Source of the DNA: a bacterium
GTDB taxonomy: Bacteria > Patescibacteriota > Minisyncoccia > Phycocordibacterales > UBA6899
DNA: 37,718 bases
Assembly: GCA_043758815.1 (NCBI GenBank)
Contig: JAYVMS010000009.1
Coordinates: forward strand, 1-37,718
Reading direction: 5' to 3'
In this document: positions 3,301 to 33,860 of the stretch, in pieces
Numbering within the stretch: the stretch's first letter is position 1
Layout: each line of letters starts with the position of its first letter
The notes under the pieces: generated by a model
The model's database searches: none
Told to the model about the DNA's origin: nothing
Seen by the model: the letters and a program-made list of their open reading frames with translations, nothing else
Program-made: the position numbers and the translations under genes

Positions 3301-6300
3301 CAACAGGCTCAGGCATTGGCGCAGAGTCTTCTATTAAGCGCTCGGCAACTTTCGCCCAGCGATTGAGAGGTTCGTGTTGAAAAATACTGATGATTGCTTC
3401 TTTGTCGAGGCCATGCTCACTCAATCTCGAAAATGCGGCAATTCCCTGCTCAATCTGCTCGTTATATTCATTTCCCAGTACTTCGTTCTTTGACACCTCG
3501 AGAATGCTTAATAAACGCTTAGCAAATTCAGGAGCTTGGACCTTTACTATCGAGGTGATCATGTCTGCTGCGCTGCGTTCATCTTTGAGGTAGTCATAGA
3601 GACCGCCCTCCTCTTCGCTTTTGGTGAGAGATTTATATATTGCCTTGGGGTCACGACCCTCTTTCATGTATGCCAAGATCTCATCTGCAGCTTTCTGGTC
3701 GGCAATAACTCCCCTTTCGTTGCGTAATGCGCGTGACGCATACAGCGAGATTCTTTCCAACTCCCTTTCGAACATCATTGTCGCTTTTTCTTTTTCTTTT
3801 GCACTTGCACCTCCGTTCATGATGGCAAACTCTTCTTTTGCGCTTTGTATTGCATCTCTTGCCACTGCTTCGTTCATCGATCTATCAAAATTCGCTACTT
3901 GGCCCTCAAGAAGCACCGCATTAAATGCGTGCTGCTCCTCATGTTCGTAGATACCTTTTGCGCCACCTTCAAATGCTCTGCCCTGTGCTCGCTCAGCTAT
4001 GACTGCACCCCGAAGCTCGGGGATATACGTTGCAACACCCGCACACCCACCTGAGTGTTTCGCATCATCGATATCCTTCTGCTCTAGACTTTCAGTATTC
4101 TTACCTTTGCCTATATAGACTGCTGCATAATCATTATCATCGTGGATGCGGAAATACAGTGTCATTGGGCCTTTTATAACCTCTACTTTCCCTGCGGGCA
4201 CCATGCCGAAGCAGGCAGTAAAGAGCGCTTCGGGTGTATTGTATTTTTCAAAATTTTCTTCAACGGCAAGATGGATCTTGTTGTATTTGTCGTACGCTTT
4301 CTCCGCTATTGCAAACTGTTCTTTGGTTGGATGGAACTCTTTTGTCAGTTCAGTAAATTGCGCAAGAAAATCTTCTTTTGAGACATCAGAATTTGCTTTT
4401 ATTTGGCTGATCAATTCCTTTTGTGCATTTCCAATTCCTATCTTTTGTGCGGCGAGTCGTTCGCGATATGCAAGCAAGAGTGCTTTACGTTCTGCCTTAG
4501 GGGCTTTCAGAATGTTTTGCAGTTCTATTTCAGGATTCCACGCATCAGGGAGCTCTTTAACCATTACTTCTCCTTCGCCCAACACATCCTCAAGCGGAAG
4601 CTCGAGATCGAGTTTGGGGTCAGACTCAAGTTCAGGCTTCGGTGCTTCGGGGACTTTGGGGGCTCCCACATCGGCTTCGATCTTATCATCGTTTTCAGAA
4701 ACGACGAGCGAGGCGAGTTTCGTAAGAAGAATAGGGATCAAAACATTTTCGAGATAGGCCGGATGCCCGGTCGCATTCGCCTGAGAATCAGCTCTCCAAA
4801 TATCTGCCTCTCTTCTGCTTTCAGCAATATATCTTTCGATCGCCACTCTCTCCGTTTCTCCGGACTCCCTCGCGACCACTATCCGGTTAGCAATATCAGC
4901 TTCCGCCCGTCTCCTGGCCTCAGGGTCAACATTAAGTTTCACCTCTTCTTTTGGCGTATCTCCTCGTTCGAGTGCTGCGATCTTCTCGGCAATAATAGCA
5001 ATAAGCACTAATTCGAGGTAATCCGCATGACCACTTTCGCCCGCATTCTTCCATGCTTCCACCTCCATCTTGCTCTCCGCTAGGTATTTTTCGAGTGCTG
5101 TTTTTTCTGTCTCCCCGCTCTCAACTGAAACTTTTACCCTGTGAGCAATGTCCTCTTCGGCTTTTACTTTTAGCGTTTCGTATTCGGGATGTACTCGCTT
5201 GGGAGTTTTGGGAACTGTGATGATCTCATCCGGACCCCCAACCGGAACTTCGGGTGCTTCGATGGTGTGCTCAATAGGCAGAAGCTGCGGGTCTTCCGTC
5301 GCTTCATTTTTAAAATTGCGCGGAACCAAGGATTCAAGCTCCCATGCAGGAGCGTTGATATCCATGGCTTGCTCCTCAAGCGCATTGTCATAATCACTCA
5401 GTTTTGCTGTTGGTACTACTAAAGAGGGGGTTTTAAAAGTTTCTGACTCTATGAGGACCTGATCTGGTGGGAGTTGCGGGACATCAGGTGCAGCCGGAAG
5501 AGTGGATTCTATTGAAGTTTCCATGACTTCGTCAGTGGAATTGTTTATTAAATTGTTGTCCGGTAAATTAAGTGCATCGAGTTCAGCCTGTGCCCGCGCA
5601 GCATTTTGTTCTAATTTATCTAAATAACCGGTTTTGGGTTCGATGACATCAGGAAGTGTGTCTGCAGTTGCTTGCGCTGAATCAACAACCGGCTCGGGGG
5701 GATGAGAAAGAGCCACTGTAAGGGCACTGTTTCTTCGATATTTCGCCACCACAGGAACCTCGGCAAACTCTGTTAGCCATTTTTCTGGAACGGTGGCGCC
5801 ATGACCACTCTCTATTGCCTCAAGTGTGTTTTCGAGTGCACCGCGAGTTTTCTTTTCGAGACTGTAGAGTAATGCGCCCCTCTCTCTCCTCTGCCACTCT
5901 TCTTTTGCTAGACCGCTCAGCTTGGGGTTTGTATCAGACATCATACTATCTACTTCTTCCCAATTAGCGTCAATTAACTTTTTTTGTATTGCAGCGATAT
6001 CGTTCTGATCGACTGAAGCCTCTTGTGCGAGAGTTCCCATTCCAAAAGCAGCAATCGCCGCATCAGCATCCGATTGTTTCTTGACTGGAATTTCATCTTG
6101 CATCAGTTGCTCCTTGATCATGGCAAGCCCTGCGCCGATGTCGCTCACATCGATGCCTCGTGCGGCAAGTGTCTGTCGGATCTCGTCGCCAGAAAAGACC
6201 GCAAGATCGGGGGTACCGACCGCAGCTGCGATATCTTTCCAATTTGTCTTTCCTTCTGCTTTTTTTCGCAGCATTTGATTGGCTTCCCACTCGCGCGCAG

Positions 6301-7165
6301 AAAGCTCGCGCATGATGCGCTCAGCTGCCCACATGTTCACATTATATTTATCGAGCACAGCTTTATCACCTACGCGTATTGCCTGCTGCAACTCTTCATC
6401 AAGACTCTTAAAATCACTTACGACGACCTCTATGTTTCCGCCGATCTCAAGATCTGCCTTATTCAAATAGGCCTTTGCTTCTACTTCACCACCTAAGAGC
6501 CACTTGAGCTGGCTTTCGATGCTACGTTTTCGTTTGAGTTCTTCGGGATTAAGAATACGCTCGTCCGTGCCAAGTGCCATAAGCTCTGCCTCGAGTTCGT
6601 CGGCACGCTTAGTGAGACCGGGCAAAACTTCATCCCCCCTTCTTCTTCCCTCGAGCTCTCGCACTGCCCGCTGTCTTTCTCTGTCAACGTAATCGATCAT
6701 GTTGATCCTACTGATCAACATATCAGTTTTATTTAGCGGAGAGACTTCTTCTTTTTCAGCAGGCGATGAAACAGCTTCGATCGCATCCATGGGTGCTACT
6801 TGCGAAGAGAAATGACCGCCTGCATCTATAGGCGATTCAGTGGTCGACTCAACCAGAGTAGGAAGAGTCAGTGTTTGATCTTCTACTTGTTGTTGTTCAC
6901 CAGCCTGTTGCTCGAGTGGAGCGATATTTCCCACTGCAGGTGTGTAGTTCATCGCCGCTTTTATGCTCTCATATTCCCCCAAGGTCGAGATGATTGCATG
7001 GTTTTCTTGTTCAAATTGATGTTTTTCACTAAGTAGGCGAAGCTTCTCACGCGCATCATCCTCCAGCATGTCACTCTCGAGAATCTCTCTACTGAGAGCC
7101 TCAATTTCTTTAGCAACTCTTACCGTGAATTCCTCTTCTGTCTCTGGTGGATTGCGCTCTGTCAT
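338..7165 (-). CDS. Giant 2275-aa multidomain membrane-associated protein of unknown function
   Basis: A single uninterrupted 6.8-kb ORF with an ATG start. Features seen: an acidic coiled-coil-like N-terminus, a tandem ~70-aa repeat, an HEEQH motif, two Gly/Ala-rich hydrophobic hairpins, and a LysM-like segment. It has its own consensus promoter and terminator. Confidence 0.9.
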   Translation of the reverse strand: MTERNPPETEEEFTVRVAKEIEALSREILESDMLEDDAREKLRLLSEKHQFEQENHAIISTLGEYESIKAAMNYTPAVGNIAPLEQQAGEQQQVEDQTLTLPTLVESTTESPIDAGGHFSSQVAPMDAIEAVSSPAEKEEVSPLNKTDMLISRINMIDYVDRERQRAVRELEGRRRGDEVLPGLTKRADELEAELMALGTDERILNPEELKRKRSIESQLKWLLGGEVEAKAYLNKADLEIGGNIEVVVSDFKSLDEELQQAIRVGDKAVLDKYNVNMWAAERIMRELSAREWEANQMLRKKAEGKTNWKDIAAAVGTPDLAVFSGDEIRQTLAARGIDVSDIGAGLAMIKEQLMQDEIPVKKQSDADAAIAAFGMGTLAQEASVDQNDIAAIQKKLIDANWEEVDSMMSDTNPKLSGLAKEEWQRRERGALLYSLEKKTRGALENTLEAIESGHGATVPEKWLTEFAEVPVVAKYRRNSALTVALSHPPEPVVDSAQATADTLPDVIEPKTGYLDKLEQNAARAQAELDALNLPDNNLINNSTDEVMETSIESTLPAAPDVPQLPPDQVLIESETFKTPSLVVPTAKLSDYDNALEEQAMDINAPAWELESLVPRNFKNEATEDPQLLPIEHTIEAPEVPVGGPDEIITVPKTPKRVHPEYETLKVKAEEDIAHRVKVSVESGETEKTALEKYLAESKMEVEAWKNAGESGHADYLELVLIAIIAEKIAALERGDTPKEEVKLNVDPEARRRAEADIANRIVVARESGETERVAIERYIAESRREADIWRADSQANATGHPAYLENVLIPILLTKLASLVVSENDDKIEADVGAPKVPEAPKPELESDPKLDLELPLEDVLGEGEVMVKELPDAWNPEIELQNILKAPKAERKALLLAYRERLAAQKIGIGNAQKELISQIKANSDVSKEDFLAQFTELTKEFHPTKEQFAIAEKAYDKYNKIHLAVEENFEKYNTPEALFTACFGMVPAGKVEVIKGPMTLYFRIHDDNDYAAVYIGKGKNTESLEQKDIDDAKHSGGCAGVATYIPELRGAVIAERAQGRAFEGGAKGIYEHEEQHAFNAVLLEGQVANFDRSMNEAVARDAIQSAKEEFAIMNGGASAKEKEKATMMFERELERISLYASRALRNERGVIADQKAADEILAYMKEGRDPKAIYKSLTKSEEEGGLYDYLKDERSAADMITSIVKVQAPEFAKRLLSILEVSKNEVLGNEYNEQIEQGIAAFSRLSEHGLDKEAIISIFQHEPLNRWAKVAERLIEDSAPMPEPVVAEQFKEKFGIDEEMIKSIPGFRNLSSGQQLLALKNLESMALEDVKKDAAVLQKEEWAKKSIWKRIGLSAITLGMSPDIRVAQIEKELAAKQREGDANDPKRIKILAKNLAALGELTKVAKAGPEVETKANGELSIKYVSREDIFGHLDAGHLTPENLAAMERFNAAADTYAKFPHEWGYETAKPGLLERFSQTRREYNGAKAEYDAARSSMLATYEAKFAERGDKDPVQSAMLEMNKVDERMQLDQLFNTHPNAEDALLKVEDQSVIGVAAKEFWKKKGSFMVYGAAARAAAVAISGGVMLPVIAMVGGGVGYGIGQAEGKKLMKAKRADGRMSEEDVREEVEYAVFKKDEHGKEIIDEQTGEKVIEHVETRKIREFTDANFFVKRVDRLTNKLEQSTDDTERELLEKKIAQTVALMKEKNERGMINFGGSSLLEDDARKGNTIANRLSFIQAMSKGEIETAVDKGALEAEMDRIVGNRQETIEEVRKSEVRKMAVKSGLIRGGFALAGGAIVQGAKELLHFGGGVGTGILAEKSSTHAAVYNPSGIRAVGEAIRGQGNTSGLPQEIVGPQQAALAKGFEEYMAADESGKDAIAKTLAMTREAMDAKIADILQNTNVPTSIQEGAAALENETANSGQESATAAYVVKVGDNLTHIIKDHIAVMRDLTPPQQENAIQNLLSKLTLVDMKAIGIIDPNHIVPGQSIQIDKLNDLLGSEKLININGESLINHAQHLGETSGGGGVASEAVMSGHSPTGFGEVREFVGTLSASDTASIESTLGRSISATESNVLHSIKGLSLLADTDAAKNNINEAVAHLGQEMRATNGVPLTTEQMMHILHQHNALDAQIRIPEVAPAVSVPPEAMSSASKAAAIESAPRVVVSPEASIQRAHSVAEIAAYIKHTPTPDESFTLTNLLELEQGTKMNPGLSTDIAAAKMEIINAMKLAKGELRPLAMYKILEAHHLETKVVVSPDAEGELLMYMETHKR
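1175..1372 (-). other. LysM-like (peptidoglycan-binding-like) segment of the giant protein
   Basis: YVVKVGDNLTHIIKDH...IVPGQSIQIDKL matches the LysM ends (YxVKxGDxLxxI ... PGQxLxI). The interior is about 20 aa longer than canonical LysM. Confidence 0.45.
1700..1810 (-). other. Second hydrophobic Gly/Ala-rich membrane segment of the giant protein
   Basis: GLIRGGFALAGGAIVQGAKELLHFGGGVGTGILA. Confidence 0.4.
2350..2465 (-). other. First hydrophobic membrane hairpin of the giant protein
   Basis: SFMVYGAAARAAAVAISGGVMLPVIAMVGGGVGYGIG is flanked by Lys-rich stretches (KKKG... / ...EGKKLMKAKR). Confidence 0.55.
3929..3943 (-). other. HExxH (HEEQH) candidate zinc-metallopeptidase motif in the giant protein
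   Basis: The context is GAKGIYEHEEQHAFNAVLLEG. It is preceded by a beta-rich stretch (GKVEVIKGPMTLYFRIHDDNDYAAVYIGKG), as in zincin folds. Confidence 0.4.
4701..5160 (-). repeat. Two tandem ~70-aa protein repeats inside the giant gene
   Basis: AEEDIAHRVKVSVESGETEKTALEKYLAESKMEVEAWKNAGESGHADYLELVLIAIIAEKIAAL versus AEADIANRIVVARESGETERVAIERYIAESRREADIWRADSQANATGHPAYLENVLIPILLTKLASL. By eye these are roughly 45% identical. Confidence 0.7.
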
Positions 7166-7324: not shown

Positions 7325-10300
7325 CTACTTATCAGTATCTGATGTATCACCAAGCTGCGAACGGGCGAACATTTTCGCAAACGGACTTTCTTCTTCTTTG
7401 ATTGCGGGTGCTTGCGCTTGTGGTAGAGTAGAAGTAGGTTGCTGGGATAGAGCAGATTGTGGTGGGCTTACAAATACCTGAGTGATCTGAGGCAAAAGCG
7501 GAGGTTGTGGTGTTTCGAGTACTTGAGTTTGCACTGGGGGGGCGACCGGAGGTTGTGAGGCAACATTCGCAAAGGCTTGCGCGAATTGATGCTGCGGCGC
7601 GACCTGAGGAGCTTGCGCCATCTGTTGTGTTGGGGGTAATACTAGTGTTGCTTGCAGTGGTGCTGCCACTTGAGACTGTACTTGAGTTACTGGGCGTGAC
7701 TGAGGAGGCGGTGTGGGCGCAGCTTGCTGAGGAGCCGCTGGCTCGGGACGCGCAAGGTATTTTTTCATGACTGCGTCGTCGACAGTTGCGCGGTCTTTGC
7801 CGAACTTGAGATATGAAAGATTTTTTATTTGCTCGACCACTTCTGGAGTGCCTGTGGGCGGCGGCATGGTTTCAATATTAAACGGCGGTACTGGTTTGCC
7901 GTTAATAAGCATCTTGAGATACGCATTATGATTGTCTATCTTCATGATGTCTGAGGCCTTGAAGATCGGGGCGAACTGCGATTCAAGAAATTGCGCATCT
8001 TCGGCGCCAACACGAAATACTGCCATCGAGCCAACGTTGCCGAACACCGCATCCTTTATACCCGGATCAAGCTGGGCGATGAATTGATGCGCGACATTTA
8101 GCGAGAGCCCATATTTGCGCGCCTCTGAAAGTATCGACGATATGGAGTCGGTCGAGATATTCTGGAATTCATCAATATAGAGATAAAAGTCAGGAAGTAT
8201 TTTCCCTATCGCATCAACGCGGGAGAGTGCGGCCATAAGGATCTTGCCGACCAACACCAGTCCGATAAGATTGGAGTTAATTTCACCGAGCTTACCTTTG
8301 GCGAGATTCACAAGAATGATCTTCTTGTTGTCCATGATATCGCGGAAGTTGAATGATGACTTTTCCTGCGCAATGATTGGACGCATCACGTCATTTGAAA
8401 GAAATATATCAAACTTGTTTGTAATGTATGGCACCATGTTAGCGAGCGAGGACTCCCCTGTCGATTTGCCAGCGATATCGCGCCAAAACTGCACCACGAT
8501 AGGATTTTTGCAACGTGAAAGTTTCAGATTCCTGAATGACACATCGACAAGTACGCGCGGGATCTCGAGCATGGTGTTGCCGGTCTCGGGATCTTCCATC
8601 ACCAAGAGTGTCGAGTAGCGGAAGTATTGTTCGAATGCGGGGCCCATCGACTCTGGCGTCGAAGAATAGAGTTTTTTGAAAATAGAAAGCATTTCATTGA
8701 CGACGAAAATTTTCTGCTCGGGCTTTGTGATATCGTACTCGAGCATATTGAGCGCAAATGGCCGTGCTGTATATGACGGATCAAAATAAATGACGTCATC
8801 GATGCGTTCCTTAGGGATATTGGCCAAAATATCTTGCACGTCAGAACCGTGCGGATCAATGAAGCACACCCCCTTACCAGCCTTGATGTCCTCGACAATC
8901 ATATTCTTGAGGAGCGTGGTCTTACCGGTACCGGTCTGTCCGATGACATAGAGATGTCGCACGCGATCCTGCTTGGTCATGCGAATCTCATGTGTCTCAC
9001 CGCGATATTTATTAACCCCGAGCAAAGTTCCCTCATGCGGAAGATCAGAAGGCGCTGGCGCAGACGACGCCTTCACGGTCTTGAGCTGTGGCGCATCTTT
9101 CTGCGACATTCCTGCAGGAAGGTGATAAAGCGTGGCAAGCTCCTTCGTGTTGAACACCAGCGCCTCGTTATCATCGACTTCGCGATAAGTGAAGTTATGC
9201 AAGAGCGTCGACAAGCGTGCCTTATCCGCATGTGTGAACTTTATGCCGTTTGCTTGTGGTCGTGCGAATTGATTAAATGCTGATTCGATGGAAAGTCGTA
9301 TCGCCTCAGCACGCTCTCGCGTTGGAGCAGAGACGACAAGGCGGAGATTGGCGATCAAAAGTGGGGATTGGATCTTTTCTTCCATCAGGGCAGTAGCTTT
9401 CTGTGCGGAATCAGCTTCTTTCGCGTCAAGCGTACTGTCTTTCTTTTGTCCTTTTACTTGTGTATTGAAAAACTCACTGAAGGTCTTCACGATAGCTCCT
9501 CCTGCAGAGAGTGGGATATCGGTCGCGCGTTTTACCGGCACTCCCTGCTTTATCTGCCCTAACGCATGCTTGACCTTATTGACCACACGGTCAGAGTCAG
9601 GAGAGATTATCAACTGTAGCGCCGCACCCTCACCATCGCGTTCAATCTTGGTAAACGAATTGAGAATAACGGCGAAAGGATCCTGCTCACTATCATCAGA
9701 CATCTTGATGGGATAAACAAAGCGATTGGTCACCTCCGCATATGAGCCAATTGACGCACCGAATTCATTGAAGATATTGTAGTCCCCCGGATGCTCCTCT
9801 ATCTTTGCTGTGGGAAACGCGCCCAAAATCTGCTTCACAAAAAGATCCTTCATGTGCTCCTCAACTGCAATATAAAACACAATATCATTTGAGAAATTTG
9901 AAAGCACGAGCTCAAGAGAAAAGTGTCCGTATTGTGACTTCGATGCACCCTCAAGCGGTATCATGCCAACATAGAAGCGCTCCATTTCTAATATGACGTC
10001 TTTAAAAGACAGCACCTTCTCCCCTTCCTGCATTCCTGCGAACGGAAGCGTGACCTCATACACAACCATATGCAAAAGCATCGACAGATCGCGCTCTTTT
10101 TCGAGTCCAGGAACAATTGCTCCTGTTCGTACATACTCGACAAGTACGCGATGAAAATCATCTTCAATGTGCGGATTGCCAAGGGCTTGAGACAACTTAA
10201 TAGCAGAAAGCACGCCTTTCTCCGCAAGTATCTTGTAGATCTCACGCATCTTTTCGCGATGAGGAAGTGAGCCGATATGCTCAACCACAGTTTCGAATTG

Positions 10301-10531
10301 AGGATTATCTACGATGAGGTGTTCCTCCAGCTTGGTTTCGGGCATCTGCTTTCCGTATTCGGTGATGGTCGCAGAAATTGCCGCCTCAGTCTTATTCGCG
10401 GGAGCAGTCTGCTCTTGCCACATCGCACTCTCTTTGTGTGCGACCTGCTCACGCAAATACTTCAACTCTTCTTCGGGAGAAGAAAATTTTTGCGATTCAT
10501 TATATTCTCTGGGAGCTCCTCCATTTTCCAT
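7325..10531 (-). CDS. VirD4/TraD-like (type IV coupling protein family) P-loop ATPase. It is soluble, with an unknown N-terminal domain and a P/Q-rich C-terminal tail.
   Basis: Walker A is HLYVIGQTGTGKTTLL (8918-8941). Walker B is DFYLYIDEFQN (8161-8190). ARKYGLSLNVAHQFIAQL is typical of TraD/VirD4 coupling proteins. No TM helices are present. The last ~140 aa are P/Q/A-rich low complexity. Confidence 0.8.
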   Translation of the reverse strand: MENGGAPREYNESQKFSSPEEELKYLREQVAHKESAMWQEQTAPANKTEAAISATITEYGKQMPETKLEEHLIVDNPQFETVVEHIGSLPHREKMREIYKILAEKGVLSAIKLSQALGNPHIEDDFHRVLVEYVRTGAIVPGLEKERDLSMLLHMVVYEVTLPFAGMQEGEKVLSFKDVILEMERFYVGMIPLEGASKSQYGHFSLELVLSNFSNDIVFYIAVEEHMKDLFVKQILGAFPTAKIEEHPGDYNIFNEFGASIGSYAEVTNRFVYPIKMSDDSEQDPFAVILNSFTKIERDGEGAALQLIISPDSDRVVNKVKHALGQIKQGVPVKRATDIPLSAGGAIVKTFSEFFNTQVKGQKKDSTLDAKEADSAQKATALMEEKIQSPLLIANLRLVVSAPTRERAEAIRLSIESAFNQFARPQANGIKFTHADKARLSTLLHNFTYREVDDNEALVFNTKELATLYHLPAGMSQKDAPQLKTVKASSAPAPSDLPHEGTLLGVNKYRGETHEIRMTKQDRVRHLYVIGQTGTGKTTLLKNMIVEDIKAGKGVCFIDPHGSDVQDILANIPKERIDDVIYFDPSYTARPFALNMLEYDITKPEQKIFVVNEMLSIFKKLYSSTPESMGPAFEQYFRYSTLLVMEDPETGNTMLEIPRVLVDVSFRNLKLSRCKNPIVVQFWRDIAGKSTGESSLANMVPYITNKFDIFLSNDVMRPIIAQEKSSFNFRDIMDNKKIILVNLAKGKLGEINSNLIGLVLVGKILMAALSRVDAIGKILPDFYLYIDEFQNISTDSISSILSEARKYGLSLNVAHQFIAQLDPGIKDAVFGNVGSMAVFRVGAEDAQFLESQFAPIFKASDIMKIDNHNAYLKMLINGKPVPPFNIETMPPPTGTPEVVEQIKNLSYLKFGKDRATVDDAVMKKYLARPEPAAPQQAAPTPPPQSRPVTQVQSQVAAPLQATLVLPPTQQMAQAPQVAPQHQFAQAFANVASQPPVAPPVQTQVLETPQPPLLPQITQVFVSPPQSALSQQPTSTLPQAQAPAIKEEESPFAKMFARSQLGDTSDTDK

Positions 10532-23335: not shown

Positions 23336-25255
23336 TTATTGAACGACGTTATACATGTCCTTTGTCGCCTTTGGATCCGTATTGAGCTTCGTCGTAATAT
23401 CCTCCCTATCTTGTGCAAGCGATTCACCAGTGAATGAGTCTGTGCCATCGAAGTGGATATTATTCATGAGTGTCGGGAAGCTTGCCACCTGACTTAAACT
23501 TGGAGTAAGGATAATCTGGAATGCAACCTCGCGTGGTGGCTTGCCCACTCCGGTGCCCGCAGGAATGTCTCCCGGTACCCAGGTTATCTGGTGAGTATTT
23601 TGATTGTAGGTGATATTTTCTTTGTTCGGATATACTGCTCCAGCCCATGTCACATATGGTGGCATGATAGCGCGTACTTGTGGATTACTGATGGTGTTTG
23701 AGATGTTAACAATATCCCAAATTATGGTGTAGGTCGTTTCTTGTTCAACTTTCGGAGGAAGAGGTCCGGTATTCACAAAAGGTCCGGCATAATACACTGA
23801 ACGCGCGGTGAATTGTGCCTGCGATGTGACCTTAACGTTCTGTGTGATTGCGGTCTTCACTTCTTCTGGTACACCGGCTTCCGAGATACGCTTTCCACGC
23901 ACGGTCACCTCGGCCGTGATGGTCGGGTTCGTCAAAAGCTGGGTTCCTGAGATCGCGGGCATTGGCAAGAATGAAAAACCAACACTACCCTTGTCGCCTG
24001 CTTCAAGCACTGCGAGTGCGGGACTGGAACGTTCATCCCAAAATATCGTATCGTCAGATGAACGATAAAATCCATCATGCGCAATAACGGTAGTTCGATC
24101 GAGTGCGACTCCACTTAGCTTGACCTCGATCTGCGCATTGATGATCTTCGTCGGGAGATTGTTGAGCCAATTGACCTCGCCCGCAATTCGCTGTCCAAAG
24201 TGAGCGGTCGCCTGTTCGGCAGACTTCCCATTCAACAAAAGAGCGATGCCAATAAAAGGACGCTGCACTATCAAACTTGAGAGCTGTGTTGAATACATAA
24301 CACTGATATTGCGTTCAGTTTGATCACTTCCGGCGCCGACGCTTGTATGAAAGACCTTTTCTTGCGTATCTTCACCGGCAAGTATCCCCCTGATGCGTAT
24401 CTTGAATTTACTTGCAGGGTCCATGGTACCGATACGCCAGATGTTGTTACCAAAAGTCGGCTTCGGGTCAGTGTCGGTCAGGGTAAATCCGAGCGGAAAT
24501 TCAACCTTTACGAGCACATCGCGAAGTGGAATAACGGTATTTGAGGCGGCATTGACACCCAACTCAATCTCTTGTCCGGAGTTCACTTCTTTGAGAGTGT
24601 CGACGGTGAGATTCACCGGCGCGGCGAGAAGGTGGACCGGACGTACCTCGTCCTTCGTAAAGACTGAGTTGATATTTGCGAAGCGATACTCGAGACTGGC
24701 GTGCAGTTCTTTGTCGGTATTTTCTTCACCAAGGAAGACAGCCTTCGTGTGATACTCGACGACTTGACCAGGGGCAATTTGCCCGAGCACTTTTTTCTCA
24801 TCATGGAGATCCTTTTCGGGAGTGTCGCCCATGCGTGTACCTGGTGGGTAGACAATGGTGAGATTGGCATACTCCAGAGCGATACGGTTCTGGTTGCTAA
24901 TGCGTACCAATATATCTGCAGGAACTCCAGGAGTAGTGCCAACGGGAACATCAAAAGCGATGAGGATGTTTTTATCGGATGGTTTAGCGAATGGATCAAA
25001 GAGATTATATAAAAGAAAGCTTGCTGAGCCGAAAGTGACAAGCACGGCGAGCACAACAAGGGCCTTGAGGATCTTTACTCCCCCGGTTCGCTTTTCTCTG
25101 TCGTGAACGATCGTTGTATCTCCCCAGTCGTCTGCCACGTCGATATCAAGCGGTGAGAGATCGGCATTCGTGCCGGTGTTGTGACCCTCTGCATCTGGCT
25201 GGTAAAGACCTCGCTTTACCTTCTCGATACGACTGCTTTCATACTCAGTGTCCAT
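23336..25255 (-). CDS. Membrane-anchored (type II) beta-rich extracellular protein of unknown function
   Basis: A polar N-terminus is followed by one TM (ILKALVVLAVLVTFGSASFLLY) and then ~560 aa of beta-strand-like sequence. An extended -10 (TGGTATAAT) ends 8 nt upstream of the ATG. Confidence 0.8.
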   Translation of the reverse strand: MDTEYESSRIEKVKRGLYQPDAEGHNTGTNADLSPLDIDVADDWGDTTIVHDREKRTGGVKILKALVVLAVLVTFGSASFLLYNLFDPFAKPSDKNILIAFDVPVGTTPGVPADILVRISNQNRIALEYANLTIVYPPGTRMGDTPEKDLHDEKKVLGQIAPGQVVEYHTKAVFLGEENTDKELHASLEYRFANINSVFTKDEVRPVHLLAAPVNLTVDTLKEVNSGQEIELGVNAASNTVIPLRDVLVKVEFPLGFTLTDTDPKPTFGNNIWRIGTMDPASKFKIRIRGILAGEDTQEKVFHTSVGAGSDQTERNISVMYSTQLSSLIVQRPFIGIALLLNGKSAEQATAHFGQRIAGEVNWLNNLPTKIINAQIEVKLSGVALDRTTVIAHDGFYRSSDDTIFWDERSSPALAVLEAGDKGSVGFSFLPMPAISGTQLLTNPTITAEVTVRGKRISEAGVPEEVKTAITQNVKVTSQAQFTARSVYYAGPFVNTGPLPPKVEQETTYTIIWDIVNISNTISNPQVRAIMPPYVTWAGAVYPNKENITYNQNTHQITWVPGDIPAGTGVGKPPREVAFQIILTPSLSQVASFPTLMNNIHFDGTDSFTGESLAQDREDITTKLNTDPKATKDMYNVVQ

Positions 25256-25303: not shown

Positions 25304-25891
25304 CTACAGCTGTGTCTCGCGCAGAGCCTGATTGATGCCCACCAAAAGCGGGGCGCGCAAAGCCTCCGCGAATGCGAGGGTCATGTCGCTCCAAGGACTC
25401 TCTCCCAAGAGTGGCTGAAAAACTTCATTCTCCTCCCAATAGCCGAGATGGTAGAGAAGGCGAACCACAAATACGAGCTCTGCAGTACGAAGCACTGCTT
25501 CATGCCGAACATCTTTGAGGAATTGTAATCCAGATAATATATCATCAAAAAGTTTTTCATGTCGCTCCTCTCCCTGTATCAGACGACGAAGCAACTGTGC
25601 ATGCTGTGCGTACAGCACACGCTTTCCCGAATGCTCCCACAGCGCAGCAAATGAGTCGACAGGCCGCGCTGAAATAAGTTTCCACCCATGCTTTCCGTGA
25701 ATGACGTCGAGTTCTGCGTGTGAGAACATTTGCAGTGCGTAGCGCAGGCGCGACCGTCCTTCGCGCAAACTTTTTGCATGCGCAGCTATAAGCCCGAGCT
25801 CGCGCGTATAGCAGTAAAGCACCTGATCGCCTTCCCCACTCGGTTTTCCTCCCAATATTATAGCTTCGGTATGATAGATATGATACGCCAT
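25304..25891 (-). CDS. recO: DNA repair protein RecO (short form)
   Basis: The N-terminal OB-fold pattern is TEAIILGGKPSGEGDQVLYCYTRELGLIAAHAKSLRE..SRLRYALQMFSHAELDV. The call is by similarity of pattern only. Confidence 0.7.
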   Translation of the reverse strand: MAYHIYHTEAIILGGKPSGEGDQVLYCYTRELGLIAAHAKSLREGRSRLRYALQMFSHAELDVIHGKHGWKLISARPVDSFAALWEHSGKRVLYAQHAQLLRRLIQGEERHEKLFDDILSGLQFLKDVRHEAVLRTAELVFVVRLLYHLGYWEENEVFQPLLGESPWSDMTLAFAEALRAPLLVGINQALRETQL

Positions 25892-25898
25892 GGCGCTA

Positions 25899-28800
25899 TT
25901 ATACCTTGCGAACGGTTATGGTGAGTCCTGCAGATGTGGCGTCTTTAAGAACGAGTGTGCCTCCCTCGGGAAGTTTTTTTTCGAATAGAATTATATTTGC
26001 CGCTTTCTCGAGCTCATTTTTATATTTTTCAATCAGCGCTTCAATTGCTGTGTCACCTTGATATGTGAGGGCGATGGTGTTGTCGGGGACAAGCTGAAGC
26101 GTCTTCCGATTTTCTTGGATGAGTCGGATGAGGTCGCGTAATACGCCTTCGTCTTTGAGTTCGGGAGTGATAACGGTATCGAGCAGAACCGCACTCACAT
26201 CAACCTGATCAGTGACGATGACATTCTTCACATTCACCTCATCGGCAATGATGGCGAGTAATTCTCCCTTACTCTTCAAGGTTCTCGCATTCACCGAAAG
26301 TGAGGCGAGCGGTTGGCGCACCTTAATCCCCGCTTTGACACGCGCATCGAGCGCAAGCGAGACCAGGCGACGCACTTCTTCCATGTCTCCCAAAATAGTG
26401 CTTGCGGCGATGCCAACTTCATTCCAACCTTCAAGATGAACGCTCTCCTTCTTATTGTCGATCTTGAGGCGCTGATAGATATCCTCCGCAAGAAACGGCA
26501 TGAAGGGGGCAATAAGTTTTGCAAATTGAAAAAGTATCCAACCGGTCGTACGCACGGCTTCGCTTCCACCGTCATTGTGTGACTCTTCCTTAAAGCGCTC
26601 ACGCGAACGGCGCAAGTACCACGTGGAAAGATCGTCAACAAAGGGCAAGACCGGACGAGCCGCACGGTCGAGTTCGTGATTATCGAGGAAATGCGTTATC
26701 TCTGCATGCGCCTCAAGGAAGCGAGCAAGTATCCACTGGTCAAGCACACTCGTACTTTTCGGTGACTCGCGCGATATGAGCTCTAGCCCTTGATACATCT
26801 CGTAGAACGAGCAGACATTGCCAATACGTAGAGTTATCTTTTTGAATACCTCATCGACACCCGTTGTGACAAAGCGTAATTCTTCTCCGCGCACCGCAGG
26901 TGAAGACAACAAGTAGTAACGCAGTGCATCTGCGCCATACTTCTCCACCACCTCCATCGGGTCGGGGTAATTCTTGAGCTTCTTGGACATCTTTTGTCCA
27001 TCTTCAGCAAGAATAAGGCCGTTAACAATGACACTCTTATAGGGCGAACGATCAAAAAGACCGGTAGAAAGTATGAGGAGCGTATAGAACCACCCACGCG
27101 TTTGATCAATTCCTTCGGCGATAAAATCCGCTGGAAAATTCTTTATGAATTGCTTGCCGTCTTCAGTGCGCTCGTCGCCCATGTAGTGGAACTGCGCGAA
27201 TGGCATTGCCCCTGACTCAAACCAGCAGTCGAAAACATCGTGGACGCGCGTCATCGTACCTAGGCCGCAGGTACATTGATAGGTCGTTTGCACGTCGACA
27301 AAAGGGCGATGGAAATCGAGTTCATATCTGCGATTGTGAGAAAGCGGAGCGAAGTGGAACTCGCGTGATTCACCAGTAGCAATAAAATCATCCTCACCAT
27401 CTAGGCGCATGCGTGAAGCCTCCTCATTGGTTGCTCCGCGCGCAGCTGCCTGCATCATCCACACACCGTACTCATGAGTGACAAAGAGAATGGTCTTGCC
27501 TTTATATTTTGCATCGACATCATAAAGAAACGCTGCTATACGCGATTTCATCTCTTCAAGGGTCTCGCCATTGGGCGGGCGTTTGTAAAATTTTTCAAGC
27601 GTATCATTGAAGTGACTACGATAGTCTTCTATCGGGCAACCATTGAAGTCGCCGGTATTTACTTCAGCGATACGTGCATCGAAGATAACCTGCTCAGGTG
27701 TAAGGCCCATTGCTTCGGAGACGAGGAGCGCTGTCTGCTTAGTGCGGAGTACGGGCGATGCGATGATGAGGTCAATATTTTTATCTTGGCTCTTAAGGAG
27801 CGCTTCGAGCTTCTTGGCGGTAACCTTAACCTCGCTTTCGCCTTTTGCTGTGAGCGGGAATGGATCTTCTGACTTATAGCTGACGATGCCTTTGGCATTA
27901 CTCTCAGACTCACCGTGGCGCATGACAAAATACGTATTGCCTGAAGTAAGCTTGGTCTTGAGCTCTTCGGCACTGCCCATCACCTCGGTTTTTGCGCATT
28001 TGTTGCATTTCCAAACTGGAATAGGTGCGCCCCAGTAACGCGTACGTGATATTGCCCAGTCGCGAGCGCCCTCAAGCCATTTCCCGAAGCGACCTTCACC
28101 CATATGCTCGGGTATCCATGAGATCTCTTTGTTTTCCTCAAGCAGGCGAGGCTTTAGTTTGATGACATCAACGAACCACGACGAGGCAGCGTAATTAAGA
28201 AGCGGAGTATCGCAGCGCCAACAATGCGGGTAGGAGTGGTTGATATTTTCTTTTGCAAAAAATAGCCCGTGTGCTTGTAAGTACTTGAGCATTGCAATAT
28301 CCGTGCCGAGGCGGACCCTATCATCTTCGGACTTAGGCTTTACGGACATGCCGGCAAAATGCTTGACCTCAGGCTTGATCTCGCCGTTCATGCGCACGTG
28401 CTGAATGAACGGAAGCTTCATCTTCTTTCCGAGTTCCATGTCGACTTCACCAAATGCAGGTGCCTCATGCGCGATACCGGTACCATCCTCTGCGGTAACG
28501 AAATCGGCAGCATAGATTTTCCAGCCATTCTCGCGATTCTCGAGTTTCTCATCAGATGCATAATAATTAAAGAGCGGTGTATATGCTTTCCCAATAAGGT
28601 CGCGGCCAAACACTGAAGTCTCCGTCATCAAAGGCACTCCCTCTGCTTCGGTTTCAATTGCTGCCTTTTTCAATATCTCTTGTACGCGTGCTTTCGCAAT
28701 TATGTAGGTATTTCCTGCATGTACGCCGCTTGCGAAGCAAATCTTGGCGTACTCAATATCAGCTCCGACGGCGATGGCAACATTGCCCGGTAAGGTCCAC

Positions 28801-29513
28801 GGCGTAGTCGTCCATGCGATCAAAAATGTCTTGGGTTCATCCACGAGTTCGAATTTCACGTACACGGAAATGTCTTTCACGTCCTTGTAGTTCATGCCGA
28901 CCTCAGATATTGCGAGTGTCGTCTCGCAGCGCGGACAGACATGCATGGACTTGAATCCCTCATAGATAAGTTTCTTGTCGTGAAGAGTTTTGAATGCCCA
29001 CCAGATTGAGTCGGTATAGGTCGCGTCCATGGTCTTGTATTCTTTGTCCATGTCGACCCAGCGGCCCATGCGCGAGACTATCGAACGCCACTCTTTGTCG
29101 TAAGTGAGCACACTTTCGCGCGCTTTTTGATTGAAGTTTTCGATACCATACTCTTCGATATCCTTTTTGGTTTTAAATCCAAGCTCTTTCTCAATCAGGT
29201 TCTCAATAGGAAGTCCATGGCAATCCCAGCCCCACTCGCGTCTAACATAACGACCGCGCATTGTCTGAAAGCGCGGAACGACGTCTTTGATAGTGCCTGC
29301 GAGTAGGTGACCATAATGCGGGAGTCCGGTTGCAAACGGCGGGCCATCATAGAAAACATACGGTTCATTGTCTTTGGTGGCGTCGAGGGTTTTCTCGAAA
29401 ATATCATTATCTTTCCAGAATTTTTGTATGGCTTCTTCGCGCTCGGATACGCTCATTTCCCCATCTTTCCCCACACTGCCATTGTTCTTCTTTTTATCAT
29501 CTACTTTATCCAT
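25899..29513 (-). CDS. ileS: Isoleucyl-tRNA synthetase (type 2-like) with an inserted histidine-phosphatase domain
   Basis: HIGH is PHYGHLLAG and KMSKS is KMSKKLKN. The editing-domain motif TTTPWTLPGN and WAISRTRYWGAPIPVW are present. The 1204-aa length exceeds usual IleRS by ~200 aa. Confidence 0.95.
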   Translation of the reverse strand: MDKVDDKKKNNGSVGKDGEMSVSEREEAIQKFWKDNDIFEKTLDATKDNEPYVFYDGPPFATGLPHYGHLLAGTIKDVVPRFQTMRGRYVRREWGWDCHGLPIENLIEKELGFKTKKDIEEYGIENFNQKARESVLTYDKEWRSIVSRMGRWVDMDKEYKTMDATYTDSIWWAFKTLHDKKLIYEGFKSMHVCPRCETTLAISEVGMNYKDVKDISVYVKFELVDEPKTFLIAWTTTPWTLPGNVAIAVGADIEYAKICFASGVHAGNTYIIAKARVQEILKKAAIETEAEGVPLMTETSVFGRDLIGKAYTPLFNYYASDEKLENRENGWKIYAADFVTAEDGTGIAHEAPAFGEVDMELGKKMKLPFIQHVRMNGEIKPEVKHFAGMSVKPKSEDDRVRLGTDIAMLKYLQAHGLFFAKENINHSYPHCWRCDTPLLNYAASSWFVDVIKLKPRLLEENKEISWIPEHMGEGRFGKWLEGARDWAISRTRYWGAPIPVWKCNKCAKTEVMGSAEELKTKLTSGNTYFVMRHGESESNAKGIVSYKSEDPFPLTAKGESEVKVTAKKLEALLKSQDKNIDLIIASPVLRTKQTALLVSEAMGLTPEQVIFDARIAEVNTGDFNGCPIEDYRSHFNDTLEKFYKRPPNGETLEEMKSRIAAFLYDVDAKYKGKTILFVTHEYGVWMMQAAARGATNEEASRMRLDGEDDFIATGESREFHFAPLSHNRRYELDFHRPFVDVQTTYQCTCGLGTMTRVHDVFDCWFESGAMPFAQFHYMGDERTEDGKQFIKNFPADFIAEGIDQTRGWFYTLLILSTGLFDRSPYKSVIVNGLILAEDGQKMSKKLKNYPDPMEVVEKYGADALRYYLLSSPAVRGEELRFVTTGVDEVFKKITLRIGNVCSFYEMYQGLELISRESPKSTSVLDQWILARFLEAHAEITHFLDNHELDRAARPVLPFVDDLSTWYLRRSRERFKEESHNDGGSEAVRTTGWILFQFAKLIAPFMPFLAEDIYQRLKIDNKKESVHLEGWNEVGIAASTILGDMEEVRRLVSLALDARVKAGIKVRQPLASLSVNARTLKSKGELLAIIADEVNVKNVIVTDQVDVSAVLLDTVITPELKDEGVLRDLIRLIQENRKTLQLVPDNTIALTYQGDTAIEALIEKYKNELEKAANIILFEKKLPEGGTLVLKDATSAGLTITVRKV
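27440..27943 (-). other. Histidine phosphatase (phosphoglycerate-mutase superfamily, branch 1) domain embedded in IleRS
   Basis: All family motifs occur in order: YFVMRHGESESN (RHG at 27912-27920), PLTAKGESEV, IIASPVLRTKQTA, IAEVNTGDFNG, PPNGETLEEMKSR, and ILFVTHEYG (His codon at 27474-27476). Confidence 0.75.
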
Positions 29514-31991: not shown

Positions 31992-33764
31992 TCACATTCT
32001 ATCTGGTGCCTCGATTCCAAGCAACCCGAGTCCACACTTAAGGATATGTGACACAGACTGCACAAGTGCGAGCTTGTACGGCTCATCGGGAGCCCCATCT
32101 AAGATTGGGTTATTGGAATAAAATGCATTGAACTCGCGCGCAATCTCGATAAGGTAGGTAGCAACAAAGTGTGGCTCGCGCGCCTCTTGTGCACGCAAGA
32201 CCACCTCAGGAAATCGCAAAATGTACTTGTGAAACGGTATAATCTCGGACGAAGTCATAGCAAGTGCGTTCGCCTTTTTCTCGCCTGCCTTTTTAAGCAA
32301 TGAGCATGTGCGCGCGTACGTATACTGCAAATAAGGACCCGAGTCTCCTTCGAATGAGAGCGACTGTTCGAAGTCAAAGATGATGTCCTTCCCAGACGCC
32401 TGTCGGAGTATGCTGTATTTGATGGCGCCGACTGCTACCATCTCTGCGATGGCGGACTTTTCTTCATCGGTAAAATTTTCATTATTGATCTTTGCTATTG
32501 CTCGTGCTTTTACATTTGCGATGAGCGCTTCTGCGGTTATGACATCCCCTGTGCGTGAGGACATCTTGCCTGTAGGCAAACGCAGCATGCCATGTGAATA
32601 ATGTTCGGTCTTAGGCGCAAGTTCGGGAAATACTTTTGCCATTGCATCGAGCAGCACTCTAAAATAATCATTCACCTCATTGCCGGTAATGATGATTGAC
32701 GTATCGTATGGATACGCGTCGTACTTTATCTGCGCGAGTCCTAGCTCCTTGGCTTCATAGGTTGGCAATCCTTCTTTGTTGATGAACACGCGTGTATGCA
32801 GGCCTTTTGCTTCATCACCCTTGTAGACCACAGCCCCTTCGCTTGTCTCAAATATATCTCTATGCTCTCCAACAACTTTCTTCCCGAACTCACCGGTCTT
32901 CGATTCAAAGAAATAGAAATCAAAAGCTTTTTCTGGTCCGTGGTTTGTACCGAGACGTTTATATATATGCTCAAATTCATTTAGACTCCATTCTTTTCCA
33001 AAACGATAATTGCTACTGATTGGGTTGGGAGAATTTAATTCGTCGCTACTTCCTATTAGTTTATATATTTCTTTATTTATTTTATTTATTGCGTTCTTCG
33101 CGCCCTCGTCTTCCTCGTATGCCCTACTTCCTTCTGCATATACTTTTGGCATATATGCTTCTGCGCCAAACCCTGATACTTCGGCGACATGCGTCCTGAA
33201 CTCACCAGACCCCATGGACTGTCTTATCTGCATAAGTCTCCACACCGCCTTCGCTACGTGCAACCCCACATCTCCTTGATAGCAAGCCCGTTTTGTTTCG
33301 GCGCCTGAGGCTTCGACGAGACGCGAGATTGATTCACCAATTGTATTACTCATGAGATGACCAATATGAAATTCTTTGAACGGATTAGGGTCGGTATATT
33401 CAACGACCACCTTCGTGTTCGCAAGGGTTTCGTTTTTGCCAAACGCATCTGCATTGTCGAGGCTCTCGCTCAGTGCATTCGTAAAAAAGGCATTTGAAAG
33501 TTTGAAGTTAATGAAACCAGGGCCAGCAATGAAGACGTCCGCAATTTCCACGGTGTTCCCCTGCTTTAGCTTGGCGACAATTTCCTCGGCGAGCGCACGA
33601 GGATTCTTGCCGGCAGCCTTTGCCGCTACCATGGCTACGTTGGTAGCATAATCACCGTGCGTGATTTCTGCGGGATGCTCCAGGGAAACTTTTACATTTA
33701 TAACTCCAAGCTCGGCAAGCGCGCCCGTGATAAGTTCTGCCAATTTATCTTCCATCTTTATCAT
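31992..33764 (-). CDS. argS: Arginyl-tRNA synthetase
   Basis: The HIGH-type motif is FHIGHLMSNTIGES and the C-terminal anticodon-binding end is typical (...YLQYTYARTCSLLKKAG). I chose the ATG at 33764 (MIKMEDKL...), preceded by TGTTACTAT plus 6 nt. The track ORF extends to 33803. Confidence 0.95.
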   Translation of the reverse strand: MIKMEDKLAELITGALAELGVINVKVSLEHPAEITHGDYATNVAMVAAKAAGKNPRALAEEIVAKLKQGNTVEIADVFIAGPGFINFKLSNAFFTNALSESLDNADAFGKNETLANTKVVVEYTDPNPFKEFHIGHLMSNTIGESISRLVEASGAETKRACYQGDVGLHVAKAVWRLMQIRQSMGSGEFRTHVAEVSGFGAEAYMPKVYAEGSRAYEEDEGAKNAINKINKEIYKLIGSSDELNSPNPISSNYRFGKEWSLNEFEHIYKRLGTNHGPEKAFDFYFFESKTGEFGKKVVGEHRDIFETSEGAVVYKGDEAKGLHTRVFINKEGLPTYEAKELGLAQIKYDAYPYDTSIIITGNEVNDYFRVLLDAMAKVFPELAPKTEHYSHGMLRLPTGKMSSRTGDVITAEALIANVKARAIAKINNENFTDEEKSAIAEMVAVGAIKYSILRQASGKDIIFDFEQSLSFEGDSGPYLQYTYARTCSLLKKAGEKKANALAMTSSEIIPFHKYILRFPEVVLRAQEAREPHFVATYLIEIAREFNAFYSNNPILDGAPDEPYKLALVQSVSHILKCGLGLLGIEAPDRM

Positions 33765-33860
33765 AAACAGATAGTAACATACGAGCCTTGAAATAGAAGC
33801 CATCTATATAAACAAAAAGCTCGACTGATGTCGAGCGATTGTAAATATTTGTTTTACTAC

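Follow-up and report, generated by a model that had tools for sequence, protein, structure and literature searches.

A Histidine Phosphatase Domain Nested in the CP3 Subdomain of Isoleucyl-tRNA Synthetase in Paceibacteria

The ileS Gene and Its Product

Contig JAYVMS010000009.1 of the bacterial assembly GCA_043758815.1, analyzed here as a single stretch of 37,718 nucleotides (nt; hereafter the window), carries on its minus strand an ileS gene for isoleucyl-tRNA synthetase (IleRS) with a complete histidine phosphatase domain nested in the CP3 subdomain of the enzyme. The product of this gene, which serves as the query in all comparisons below, is encoded by one open reading frame (ORF) of even GC content and displays the following host features:

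25899-29513, minus strand: type-2 isoleucyl-tRNA synthetase hosting the insert, complete ORF of 1204 amino acids (aa) (uninterrupted frame, TIGR00392, Pfam)
29307-29318, minus strand: HYGH, the HIGH signature, aa 66-69 (motif scan)
26979-26993, minus strand: KMSKK, the KMSKS signature, aa 841-845 (motif scan)

The host protein matches TIGR00392 (ileS) with 852 bits against a cut-off of 621, the match being divided in two by the insert, and its Pfam domains comprise tRNA-synt_1 (PF00133, 452 bits in two stretches), Anticodon_1 (PF08264, aa 925-1069), DUF5915 (PF19302), and His_Phos_1 (PF00300). The motif scan also located the CP1 editing motifs WTTTPWT (aa 234) and GTGIAH (aa 344). An AlphaFold 2 model of aa 20-1204 reached a predicted local distance difference test (pLDDT) value of 90.4, with 93-97 in the insert region, and a predicted template modeling score (pTM) of 0.83; in Foldseek comparisons it gave template modeling (TM) scores, normalized to the target, of 0.81-0.89 with IleRS2 (8c9d), yeast IleRS (8wnd), and Thermus IleRS (1ile). 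Solved enzymes of type 2, the eukaryote- or archaeon-like form, namely Priestia megaterium IleRS2 (8C8U/8C9D), yeast IleRS (8WND/7D5C), and Thermus thermophilus IleRS (1ILE), share with the query the family, the fold, the HIGH and KMSKS signatures, and the CP1 editing motifs, but differ in having a short CP3 linker and no catalytic domain in CP3. On these sequence and model matches, the host is the housekeeping type-2 IleRS of a bacterium of the Paceibacteria (Parcubacteria, Patescibacteria/Candidate Phyla Radiation), a lineage of tiny, uncultured cells, with all signature motifs kept and charging activity predicted.

Two narrower assignments of the host were rejected. The models of the mupirocin-resistant enzymes MupA and MupB, for which 1900 bits are required, gave 693 and 677 bits, a likeness that reflects shared type-2 ancestry only. 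The model for IleRS with GNAT (NF040702, "ileS_w_GNAT") gave 308 bits against 1999, and no GNAT Pfam match was found in the host; this curated family is a precedent for an IleRS with an extra enzymatic domain, although the accessory enzyme there is an N-acetyltransferase and not a phosphatase.

The Inserted Histidine Phosphatase

The insert and its catalytic residues are listed below; counts out of 81 refer to a set of divergent sequences in which the median identity is 38% for the insert and 48-51% for the synthetase body.

27321-27953, minus strand: inserted segment, aa 521-731 (about 211 aa), comprising the phosphatase and a C-terminal linker (gap in alignments to solved IleRS, empty-site alignment)
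27399-27929, minus strand: His_Phos_1 (PF00300) match, aa 529-705 (E 6.2e-28, 98 bits against 21.7)
27912-27920, minus strand: R532-H533-G534, the RHG motif with the predicted phospho-acceptor His (R and H in 81/81 divergent sequences, 233/233 nested domains, and 26/26 free-standing enzymes)
27744-27746, minus strand: R590, second phosphate-binding Arg, in SPxxRxxQTA (81/81; 233/233 nested; 26/26 free-standing)
27663-27665, minus strand: E617, predicted general acid/base (81/81; E or D across all nested and free-standing domains)
27474-27476, minus strand: H680, second catalytic-site His, in THEYG (81/81; 233/233 nested)

The preliminary description of this DNA had listed a series of histidine phosphatase motifs and proposed a profile check. 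All of these motifs are present and in order (R532-H533-G534-E-S..N539, P553-L-T..G558, S586-P..R590..Q-T-A, E617...G621, P647-N-G-E-T...R658, and T679-H680-E-Y-G), and the PF00300 match bears them out, covering profile positions 2-172 of 194 and reaching E 3.7e-29 when the excised segment is searched alone. A model of the insert only has a pLDDT of 96.6 and yielded 302 Foldseek matches in the PDB at E <= 0.001, among which the best listed are His_Phos enzymes: the PspA-type phosphoserine phosphatase (4ij5/4ij6), the phosphoglycerate mutase (PGM) of S. pombe (1fzt), CobC, and PhoE. The fold of the insert is the same as that of iPSP1 (4IJ5), PhoE (1H2E), CobC (6NRU/6E4B), and the S. pombe cofactor-dependent PGM (dPGM, 1FZT), with E values of about 1e-13 and TM scores of 0.65-0.75, and all of them share the RHG motif, the second Arg, the Glu, and the second His. 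They differ from it in overall sequence (18-27% identity) and in their substrate-defining residues, and none of them is embedded in another enzyme. As judged from profile, motifs, and model, the insert contains a complete, confidently folded branch-1 histidine phosphatase of about 190 aa with predicted activity.

Membership in the better-characterized families was tried and rejected in each case. Scores stayed under the cut-off for dPGM (NF038349, 76-98 bits against 225; TIGR01258, 21-44 against 81.7), the alpha-ribazole phosphatase CobC (TIGR03162, 67-97 against 162.9), the phosphoserine phosphatase PspA (NF045917, 59-87 against 350), and the phosphohistidine phosphatase SixA (TIGR00249, 29-38 against 74.5).

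Insertion Site and Zinc Knuckle

The position of the insert within the synthetase is defined by the CP3 subdomain and its two cysteine pairs:

27231-28028, minus strand: CP3 subdomain of IleRS including the insert, about aa 496-761 (boundaries carried over from Candida IleRS CP3 by alignment)
27996-28007, minus strand: C503-x-x-C506 (C503-N-K-C506), first half of the CP3 zinc knuckle (sequence)
27267-27275, minus strand: C747-x-C749 (C747-T-C749), second half of the CP3 zinc knuckle (sequence)

The coordinates first given for the single 1204-aa ORF and for the roughly 240 aa between CxxC and CxC are exact, with 240 residues between C506 and C747. Mapping of the insertion point against solved IleRS, which had been suggested as a check, gave the same answer in every alignment: all of them jump over query residues 521-731. 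In yeast IleRS (8wnd/7d5c), for example, query 20-520 corresponds to chain residues 8-490 and query 732-1103 to 498-886, so that about 211 query residues stand where the yeast enzyme has about 7. The empty site can also be read from insert-less IleRS of Patescibacteria (L082 and L088), in which the sequence runs C-ECGNFEVIGSKEELKK...(17 aa)...HRPWVD...CKKC and the cysteine motifs (CxC/CxxC...CxxC) lie about 40 aa apart; in the query, the phosphatase takes the place of the linker that would join GSAEELK to HRPFVD. The site, a surface loop of the catalytic core, is constant, with the RHG motif 38-39 aa past WGxPIPxW in 168 of 178 full-length proteins.

In Candida IleRS, CP3 spans residues 473-534, and its zinc motif is found in the T. 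thermophilus enzyme but not in those of Candida or S. aureus (PMC7191050); the four-Cys form of T. thermophilus is the one seen in the query (PMC7191050). The CP3 cysteines are at least 98% conserved in 120 close homologs. Among the 81 divergent sequences, which stem from different species of the Genome Taxonomy Database (GTDB), all four are present in only about 15-20 and the CxxC half in about 16. The original wording, in which the domain is nested inside the zinc knuckle, therefore holds for the subclade of the query but not in general: judged from these alignments, nesting in the zinc knuckle is a trait of that subclade, nesting in CP3 is the general condition, and most carriers have lost the cysteines.

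Just before HRPxxD, a linker motif P-x-(P/S)-H726-N727-x-x-Y-E-L-D was observed (query aa 724-731, nt 27321-27344). H726 occurs in 74 and N727 in 73 of the 81 nested sequences, and the motif is not found in the free-standing phosphatases described below.

Distribution, Conservation, and Selection

A survey of relatives, also proposed at the outset, found the insert throughout the closest homologs. PF00133 and PF00300 occur together in all 120 best database homologs (100% down to 54% identity; NCBI, JGI, ENA, and Logan), the named ones being assigned to Lloyd- or Yonathbacteria, Minisyncoccota, or Parcubacteria. In a GTDB scan with one genome per species, matches spanning the junction were obtained in at least 116 species genomes from independent assemblies, with Zambryski-, Taylor-, Kaiser-, and Nomurabacteria and Paceibacterota among them. 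An exhaustive HMMER search with the insert alone returned 555 representatives at E <= 1e-10, and about 105 of the best 150 are nested IleRS or fragments thereof.

The catalytic residues, the decay of which in orthologs had been named at the outset as grounds for refutation, are intact in these proteins. R532, H533, R590, E617, R658, and H680 are found in 81 of the 81 divergent sequences and N539 in 79, and the catalytic residues are equally constant in 233 nested domains. The ratio of nonsynonymous to synonymous substitutions (dN/dS), calculated between the query and a 91% identical relative (L001), comes to 0.054 for the insert, a value identical to that of the remaining gene; the insert is under the same strong purifying selection as its host.

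Several peculiarities were observed among the carriers. In NCBI the nested proteins go by the names "class I tRNA ligase family protein" or "hypothetical protein" alone, with no mention of the phosphatase inside them. One protein of 1087 aa (P0247) has two His_Phos domains with a duplicated piece of CP3 between them. Another of 1161 aa (P0169; L094/L095 366-3851) contains four His_Phos stretches, of which one occupies a second site on the N-terminal side of CP3; it is without the C-terminal half of IleRS and comes from a 3.9-kb contig with about 2x coverage, and may be an assembly or pseudogene oddity. A third, IleRS-like protein of 1066 aa (P0211; L096 4001-7201) carries a REP-associated/IS200-like tyrosine transposase domain inside CP1 (aa 326-472), followed by His_Phos (680-854) and a GNAT acetyltransferase domain (935-1063), with no match to the KMSKS-bearing Rossmann half or the anticodon-binding domain. 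Its neighbors are an SLH-domain protein and an archaeal-type prolyl-tRNA synthetase, and it is not a member of NF040702.

Free-standing Homologs, Synteny, and Origin

The same phosphatase family also exists as a separate protein. Among the matches of the exhaustive search, about 25 are phosphatase-only proteins of about 190 aa, which start with MKLNNKYYILRHG and end with GE[LV]RELN. A search from one of them produced 122 clusters, all of about 187-200 aa, with cluster names of the type [quoted passage not shown] or "PhoE"; the individual annotations read "histidine phosphatase family protein" or "broad specificity phosphatase PhoE". These proteins (the family of P0153, P0201, P0216, P0285, and P0337) are the closest relatives of the insert, with 34-52% identity to it (median identity 0.34 between free and nested forms and 0.39 among nested ones) and with the same length, catalytic and pocket residues, and locus. 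They differ in being separate polypeptides, in having no C-terminal PHN..YELD linker, and in being paired with a divergent, insert-less IleRS.

Wherever the context of a free-standing gene could be read (7/7), the gene order was argS, the histidine phosphatase gene, ileS (936-984 aa, without PF00300), recO, and a gene for a DUF7619 protein, with gaps between the genes that are often 1 nt, or with overlaps. The adjoining ileS encodes a bona fide IleRS, matching TIGR00392 in one continuous stretch (689 and 958 bits). The corresponding genes of the window are as follows:

31992-33803, minus strand: arginyl-tRNA synthetase (ArgRS) gene argS, upstream member of the block (PF03485, PF00750, PF05746)
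25304-25891, minus strand: RecO, directly downstream of ileS (RecO_N, RecO_C)

The block from argS to ileS and recO is present in 61 nested loci and in every free-standing locus, and recO was seen in 57 of the 81 sources compared (80 nested loci plus the window segment). In about 10 of the 80 nested loci argS directly adjoins ileS. The block of the window also includes a 639-aa protein and a class II aminoacyl-tRNA synthetase (aaRS). No separate gene of the insert family was found in the window block or in the 80 nested loci, and no conserved kinase, toxin, or tRNA-repair partner stands beside the fused gene in those 80 loci, where only housekeeping synteny was seen. The 639-aa protein, which is membrane-anchored and has no Pfam match, is encoded at 23336-25255 on the minus strand of the window; counterparts with faint DUF7619/CLIPPER matches occur in 65 of the 81 sources and are as syntenic with ileS-recO as the synthetases are.

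A second fusion involves ArgRS, to whose C-terminus a phosphatase of the same family is joined by a linker of about 5 aa (P0263 / L081 6001-8070, P0400, and P0401). Such fusions are rare, amounting to 3 of the 120 best ArgRS clusters, and in L081 the fused gene is followed directly by recO, with no ileS between. They can be explained by read-through between neighboring genes, and their use as strong Rosetta-stone evidence was down-weighted on account of the 3/120 count.

Since sister lineages encode the same phosphatase family in a gene of its own directly before ileS, the simplest reading of the locus is co-expression followed by fusion, and not a new chemistry of aminoacylation: an adjacent, co-translated phosphatase gene would have moved into the permissive CP3 loop of ileS, a relocation that probably happened once.

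Two further observations concern the free-standing side. One stand-alone phosphatase of 260 aa (P0188 / L089 361-1143) is flanked by C-DNAQ-C ... C-KK-C, like the halves of the CP3 zinc knuckle, and its gene adjoins mfd and pth rather than ileS; this single example could be an excised module of CP3 plus phosphatase or an independent zinc-ribbon host. The free-standing enzymes are, moreover, strongly basic, with a median isoelectric point (pI) of 9.9 and a net charge of +19, against a pI of 5.6 for the nested domain. The lineages with free-standing forms (L082, L088, and L090-L093) have 30-40% GC and basic proteins throughout (pI 8-10 even for IleRS and ArgRS), whereas the window (48% GC) and its relatives have an acidic IleRS with a median pI of 5.8, a marked proteome-wide contrast of charge within Parcubacteria. 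Basic charge as a sign of RNA binding was rejected, as ArgRS, IleRS, RecO, and SmpB of the same loci are equally basic, which makes the charge compositional.

Possible Functions of the Nested Domain

The interpretation we favor, at a little under an even chance, is that the insert works on its own as a phosphomonoesterase for small molecules, and that a gene once co-expressed with ileS became fused to it. By analogy with the family, H533 would attack the phosphate and form a phospho-histidine intermediate, with the phosphate held by R532, R590, H680, and N539, and E617 would protonate the leaving group and activate water. The domain would thereby constitute an autonomous second active site, a housekeeping phosphatase of the PhoE/CobC/PspA kind acting on a small-molecule phosphomonoester, and the fusion would mainly fix a 1:1 co-expression with IleRS while leaving the chemistry of aminoacylation unchanged. 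A second enzymatic activity had been put forward cautiously from the beginning, and the profile match, the invariant catalytic residues, and the selection on the insert support it as far as sequence analysis allows. Pocket positions common to nested and free-standing forms (N/D619, F623, K644, P683, and W685) suggest that both may act on the same class of substrate.

Four points weigh against this interpretation. Pocket residues outside the generic family motifs vary and point to no particular substrate. A neighbor-joining tree of the domain leaves nested and free forms unseparated, its best split containing 9 of the 27 free-standing sequences; because of this, neither a single origin nor the direction of change (insertion or fission) is proven, and the constant insertion site is what is relied on for a single origin. 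The insert-less IleRS beside the free-standing phosphatase shares only about 36% identity with the query and differs from it in the HIGH region; simple orthology may therefore not apply to the two kinds of ileS at this locus. Finally, conserved adjacency together with two kinds of fusion, one nested in IleRS and one at the C-terminus of ArgRS, would also be expected if a true link to aminoacylation existed.

Such a link is possible, if on balance improbable. The phosphatase would then be coupled to aminoacylation, its substrate being tRNA or else a nucleotide or adenylate-type ligand of class I synthetases. It might, for example, clear damaged or toxin-modified tRNA of a 3'-phosphate, a pyrophosphate, or the opened product of a 2',3'-cyclic phosphate ahead of charging, or hydrolyze a phosphorylated inhibitor or by-product. 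The tight placement of the free-standing gene between argS and ileS in all seven contexts, with translational coupling, speaks for this, but the value of adjacency is weak, since SmpB, argS, ileS, recO, DUF7619, and a glyS-like gene form a syntenic block even though they are functionally unrelated. Fusion to two class I synthetases points in the same direction, yet the ArgRS examples come from three of 120 clusters and are explicable by read-through. The nested form has persisted throughout a deep radiation, and its dN/dS matches that of the host. With about 185 aa, the domain ranks with the smallest in its superfamily, some small members of which act on macromolecules (SixA acts on a phosphoprotein). 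NF005567 (RNase H/acid phosphatase), which we take to be of the Rv2228c/SCO2299 type, offers a precedent in which a CobC/PhoE-like His_Phos domain is fused to a nucleic-acid enzyme, and it is the best or second-best NCBIfam match, reaching 79 bits as the best match of the excised insert; its cut-off is 326, however, and its fusion is terminal rather than nested and joins another partner. On the opposite side, no contact between CP3 and tRNA is described in the papers on Candida IleRS (PMC7191050) or on the yeast IleRS-tRNA complex, the latter of which names CP3 once, in a list of domains; the basic charge of the free forms is genome-wide and not specific; and the neighborhood of the 80 loci holds no conserved kinase or toxin partner.

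A stronger version of the coupled phosphatase is doubtful. It holds that the domain is a third catalytic site serving the synthetase's own reaction, either by repairing or conditioning the 3'-end of tRNA, from which it would take off a phosphate or pyrophosphate that nucleases or toxins had left, or by destroying a phosphorylated, adenylate-like inhibitor or by-product, and that it evolved from a dedicated operon partner in an argS-phosphatase-ileS arrangement. If true, it would represent a previously unrecognized accessory activity of class I aaRS, conserved over a major part of the Candidate Phyla Radiation.

It is unlikely that the domain is instead a "missing" PGM, that is, a short cofactor-dependent enzyme hidden in IleRS or in the small upstream gene and overlooked by standard screens with hidden Markov models. 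The proposal draws on the report of PGM as "missing" in some Parcubacteria (Jaffe et al. 2020, PMC7304191). Among NCBIfam models, NF038349 (short archaeal dPGM) ranks first or second for the insert and free forms, and the short monomeric PGM of S. pombe (1fzt) is among the best matches in sequence and structure; the NF038349 scores nonetheless lie far under the cut-off, and the CobC and PspA models score alike. The distal phospho and carboxylate binders of dPGM, presumably RHYG past the catalytic Glu, Lys100, and Arg116/117 (E. coli numbering), are absent, and their counterparts vary across the nested and free family, with only K644 partly conserved; the query has E617-V-N-T-G after the catalytic Glu, and the long insertion of dPGM is absent. 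No glycolytic genes were found in the 37.7-kb window. A phosphatase rather than a mutase is the best reading of these features, namely that no NCBIfam equivalog cut-off is reached, that VNTG stands in place of RHYG, and that the dPGM insertion is missing.

There is still less reason to expect a non-catalytic module, i.e. a ligand-sensing, regulatory, or structural part of IleRS in which, for instance, the binding of a phosphometabolite tunes charging or a partner docks. The near-invariant P-H726-N727 linker (73-74 of 81), which is confined to nested forms, suggests a fixed docking on the IleRS body, and the high pTM of the full model (0.83) would fit a defined orientation. Pseudo-enzymes, however, usually lose at least one catalytic residue, and here all of them, nucleophile and acid/base included, are invariant throughout the free enzymes and over 230 nested domains; the free-standing homologs, furthermore, have no host to regulate.

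An artefact, whether an assembly chimera, a pseudogene, or an intein-like or mobile element spliced from the mature protein, has a negligible chance of being the explanation: the H-N dipeptide near the C-terminal junction superficially resembles an intein end, but the frame is uninterrupted, GC is even, the same architecture recurs hundreds of times independently, in at least 116 GTDB species and in assemblies from NCBI, JGI, ENA, and Logan, dN/dS is 0.054, the fold is that of His_Phos, no HINT/intein Pfam match was found, and the residue past N727 is variable (E, D, A, K, and R being commonest), with no predominance of the Cys, Ser, or Thr nucleophile needed at an intein junction.

Other Features of the Window

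Two further long ORFs lie on the minus strand of the window. A giant one of 2275 aa (338-7165) has no Pfam match at E <= 0.001, and adjoining it is one of 1068 aa (7325-10531) with weak signatures of a TrwB/TraG-type coupling protein and a HerA-like ATPase, resembling type IV secretion or DNA translocation. Scans of the 37.7-kb window for tRNAs and Rfam families returned no matches.

Implications for Synthetase Evolution and CPR Biology

The aaRS are among the most conserved enzymes and are known to gain extra domains. The architecture described here is that of a synthetase with an accessory domain, in this case a complete enzyme nested in the catalytic core, the origin of which can be traced to a neighboring gene. 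We know of no other bacterial lineage in which what is presumably the only IleRS has, throughout, an intact and unrelated enzyme built into its catalytic core. The architecture is already visible in public databases as precomputed Pfam hits. The preliminary description knew of no published fusion of this kind, and in agreement with it no description of the nested architecture was found in the full-text literature searched, including Meheust 2019.

The locus offers a very clean natural example of domain insertion, in which one gene occurs free-standing, terminally fused, and nested within a single conserved neighborhood. It also indicates that the CP3 loop of IleRS tolerates a folded insertion of 200 aa, which may be of use in engineering. 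As annotation is weak, metabolic reconstructions that score whole proteins could miss the embedded phosphatase. For organisms of minimal metabolism, a lineage-wide and strongly conserved phosphatase of this kind would mean that some step of metabolism has stayed hidden or that translation has a new accessory function.

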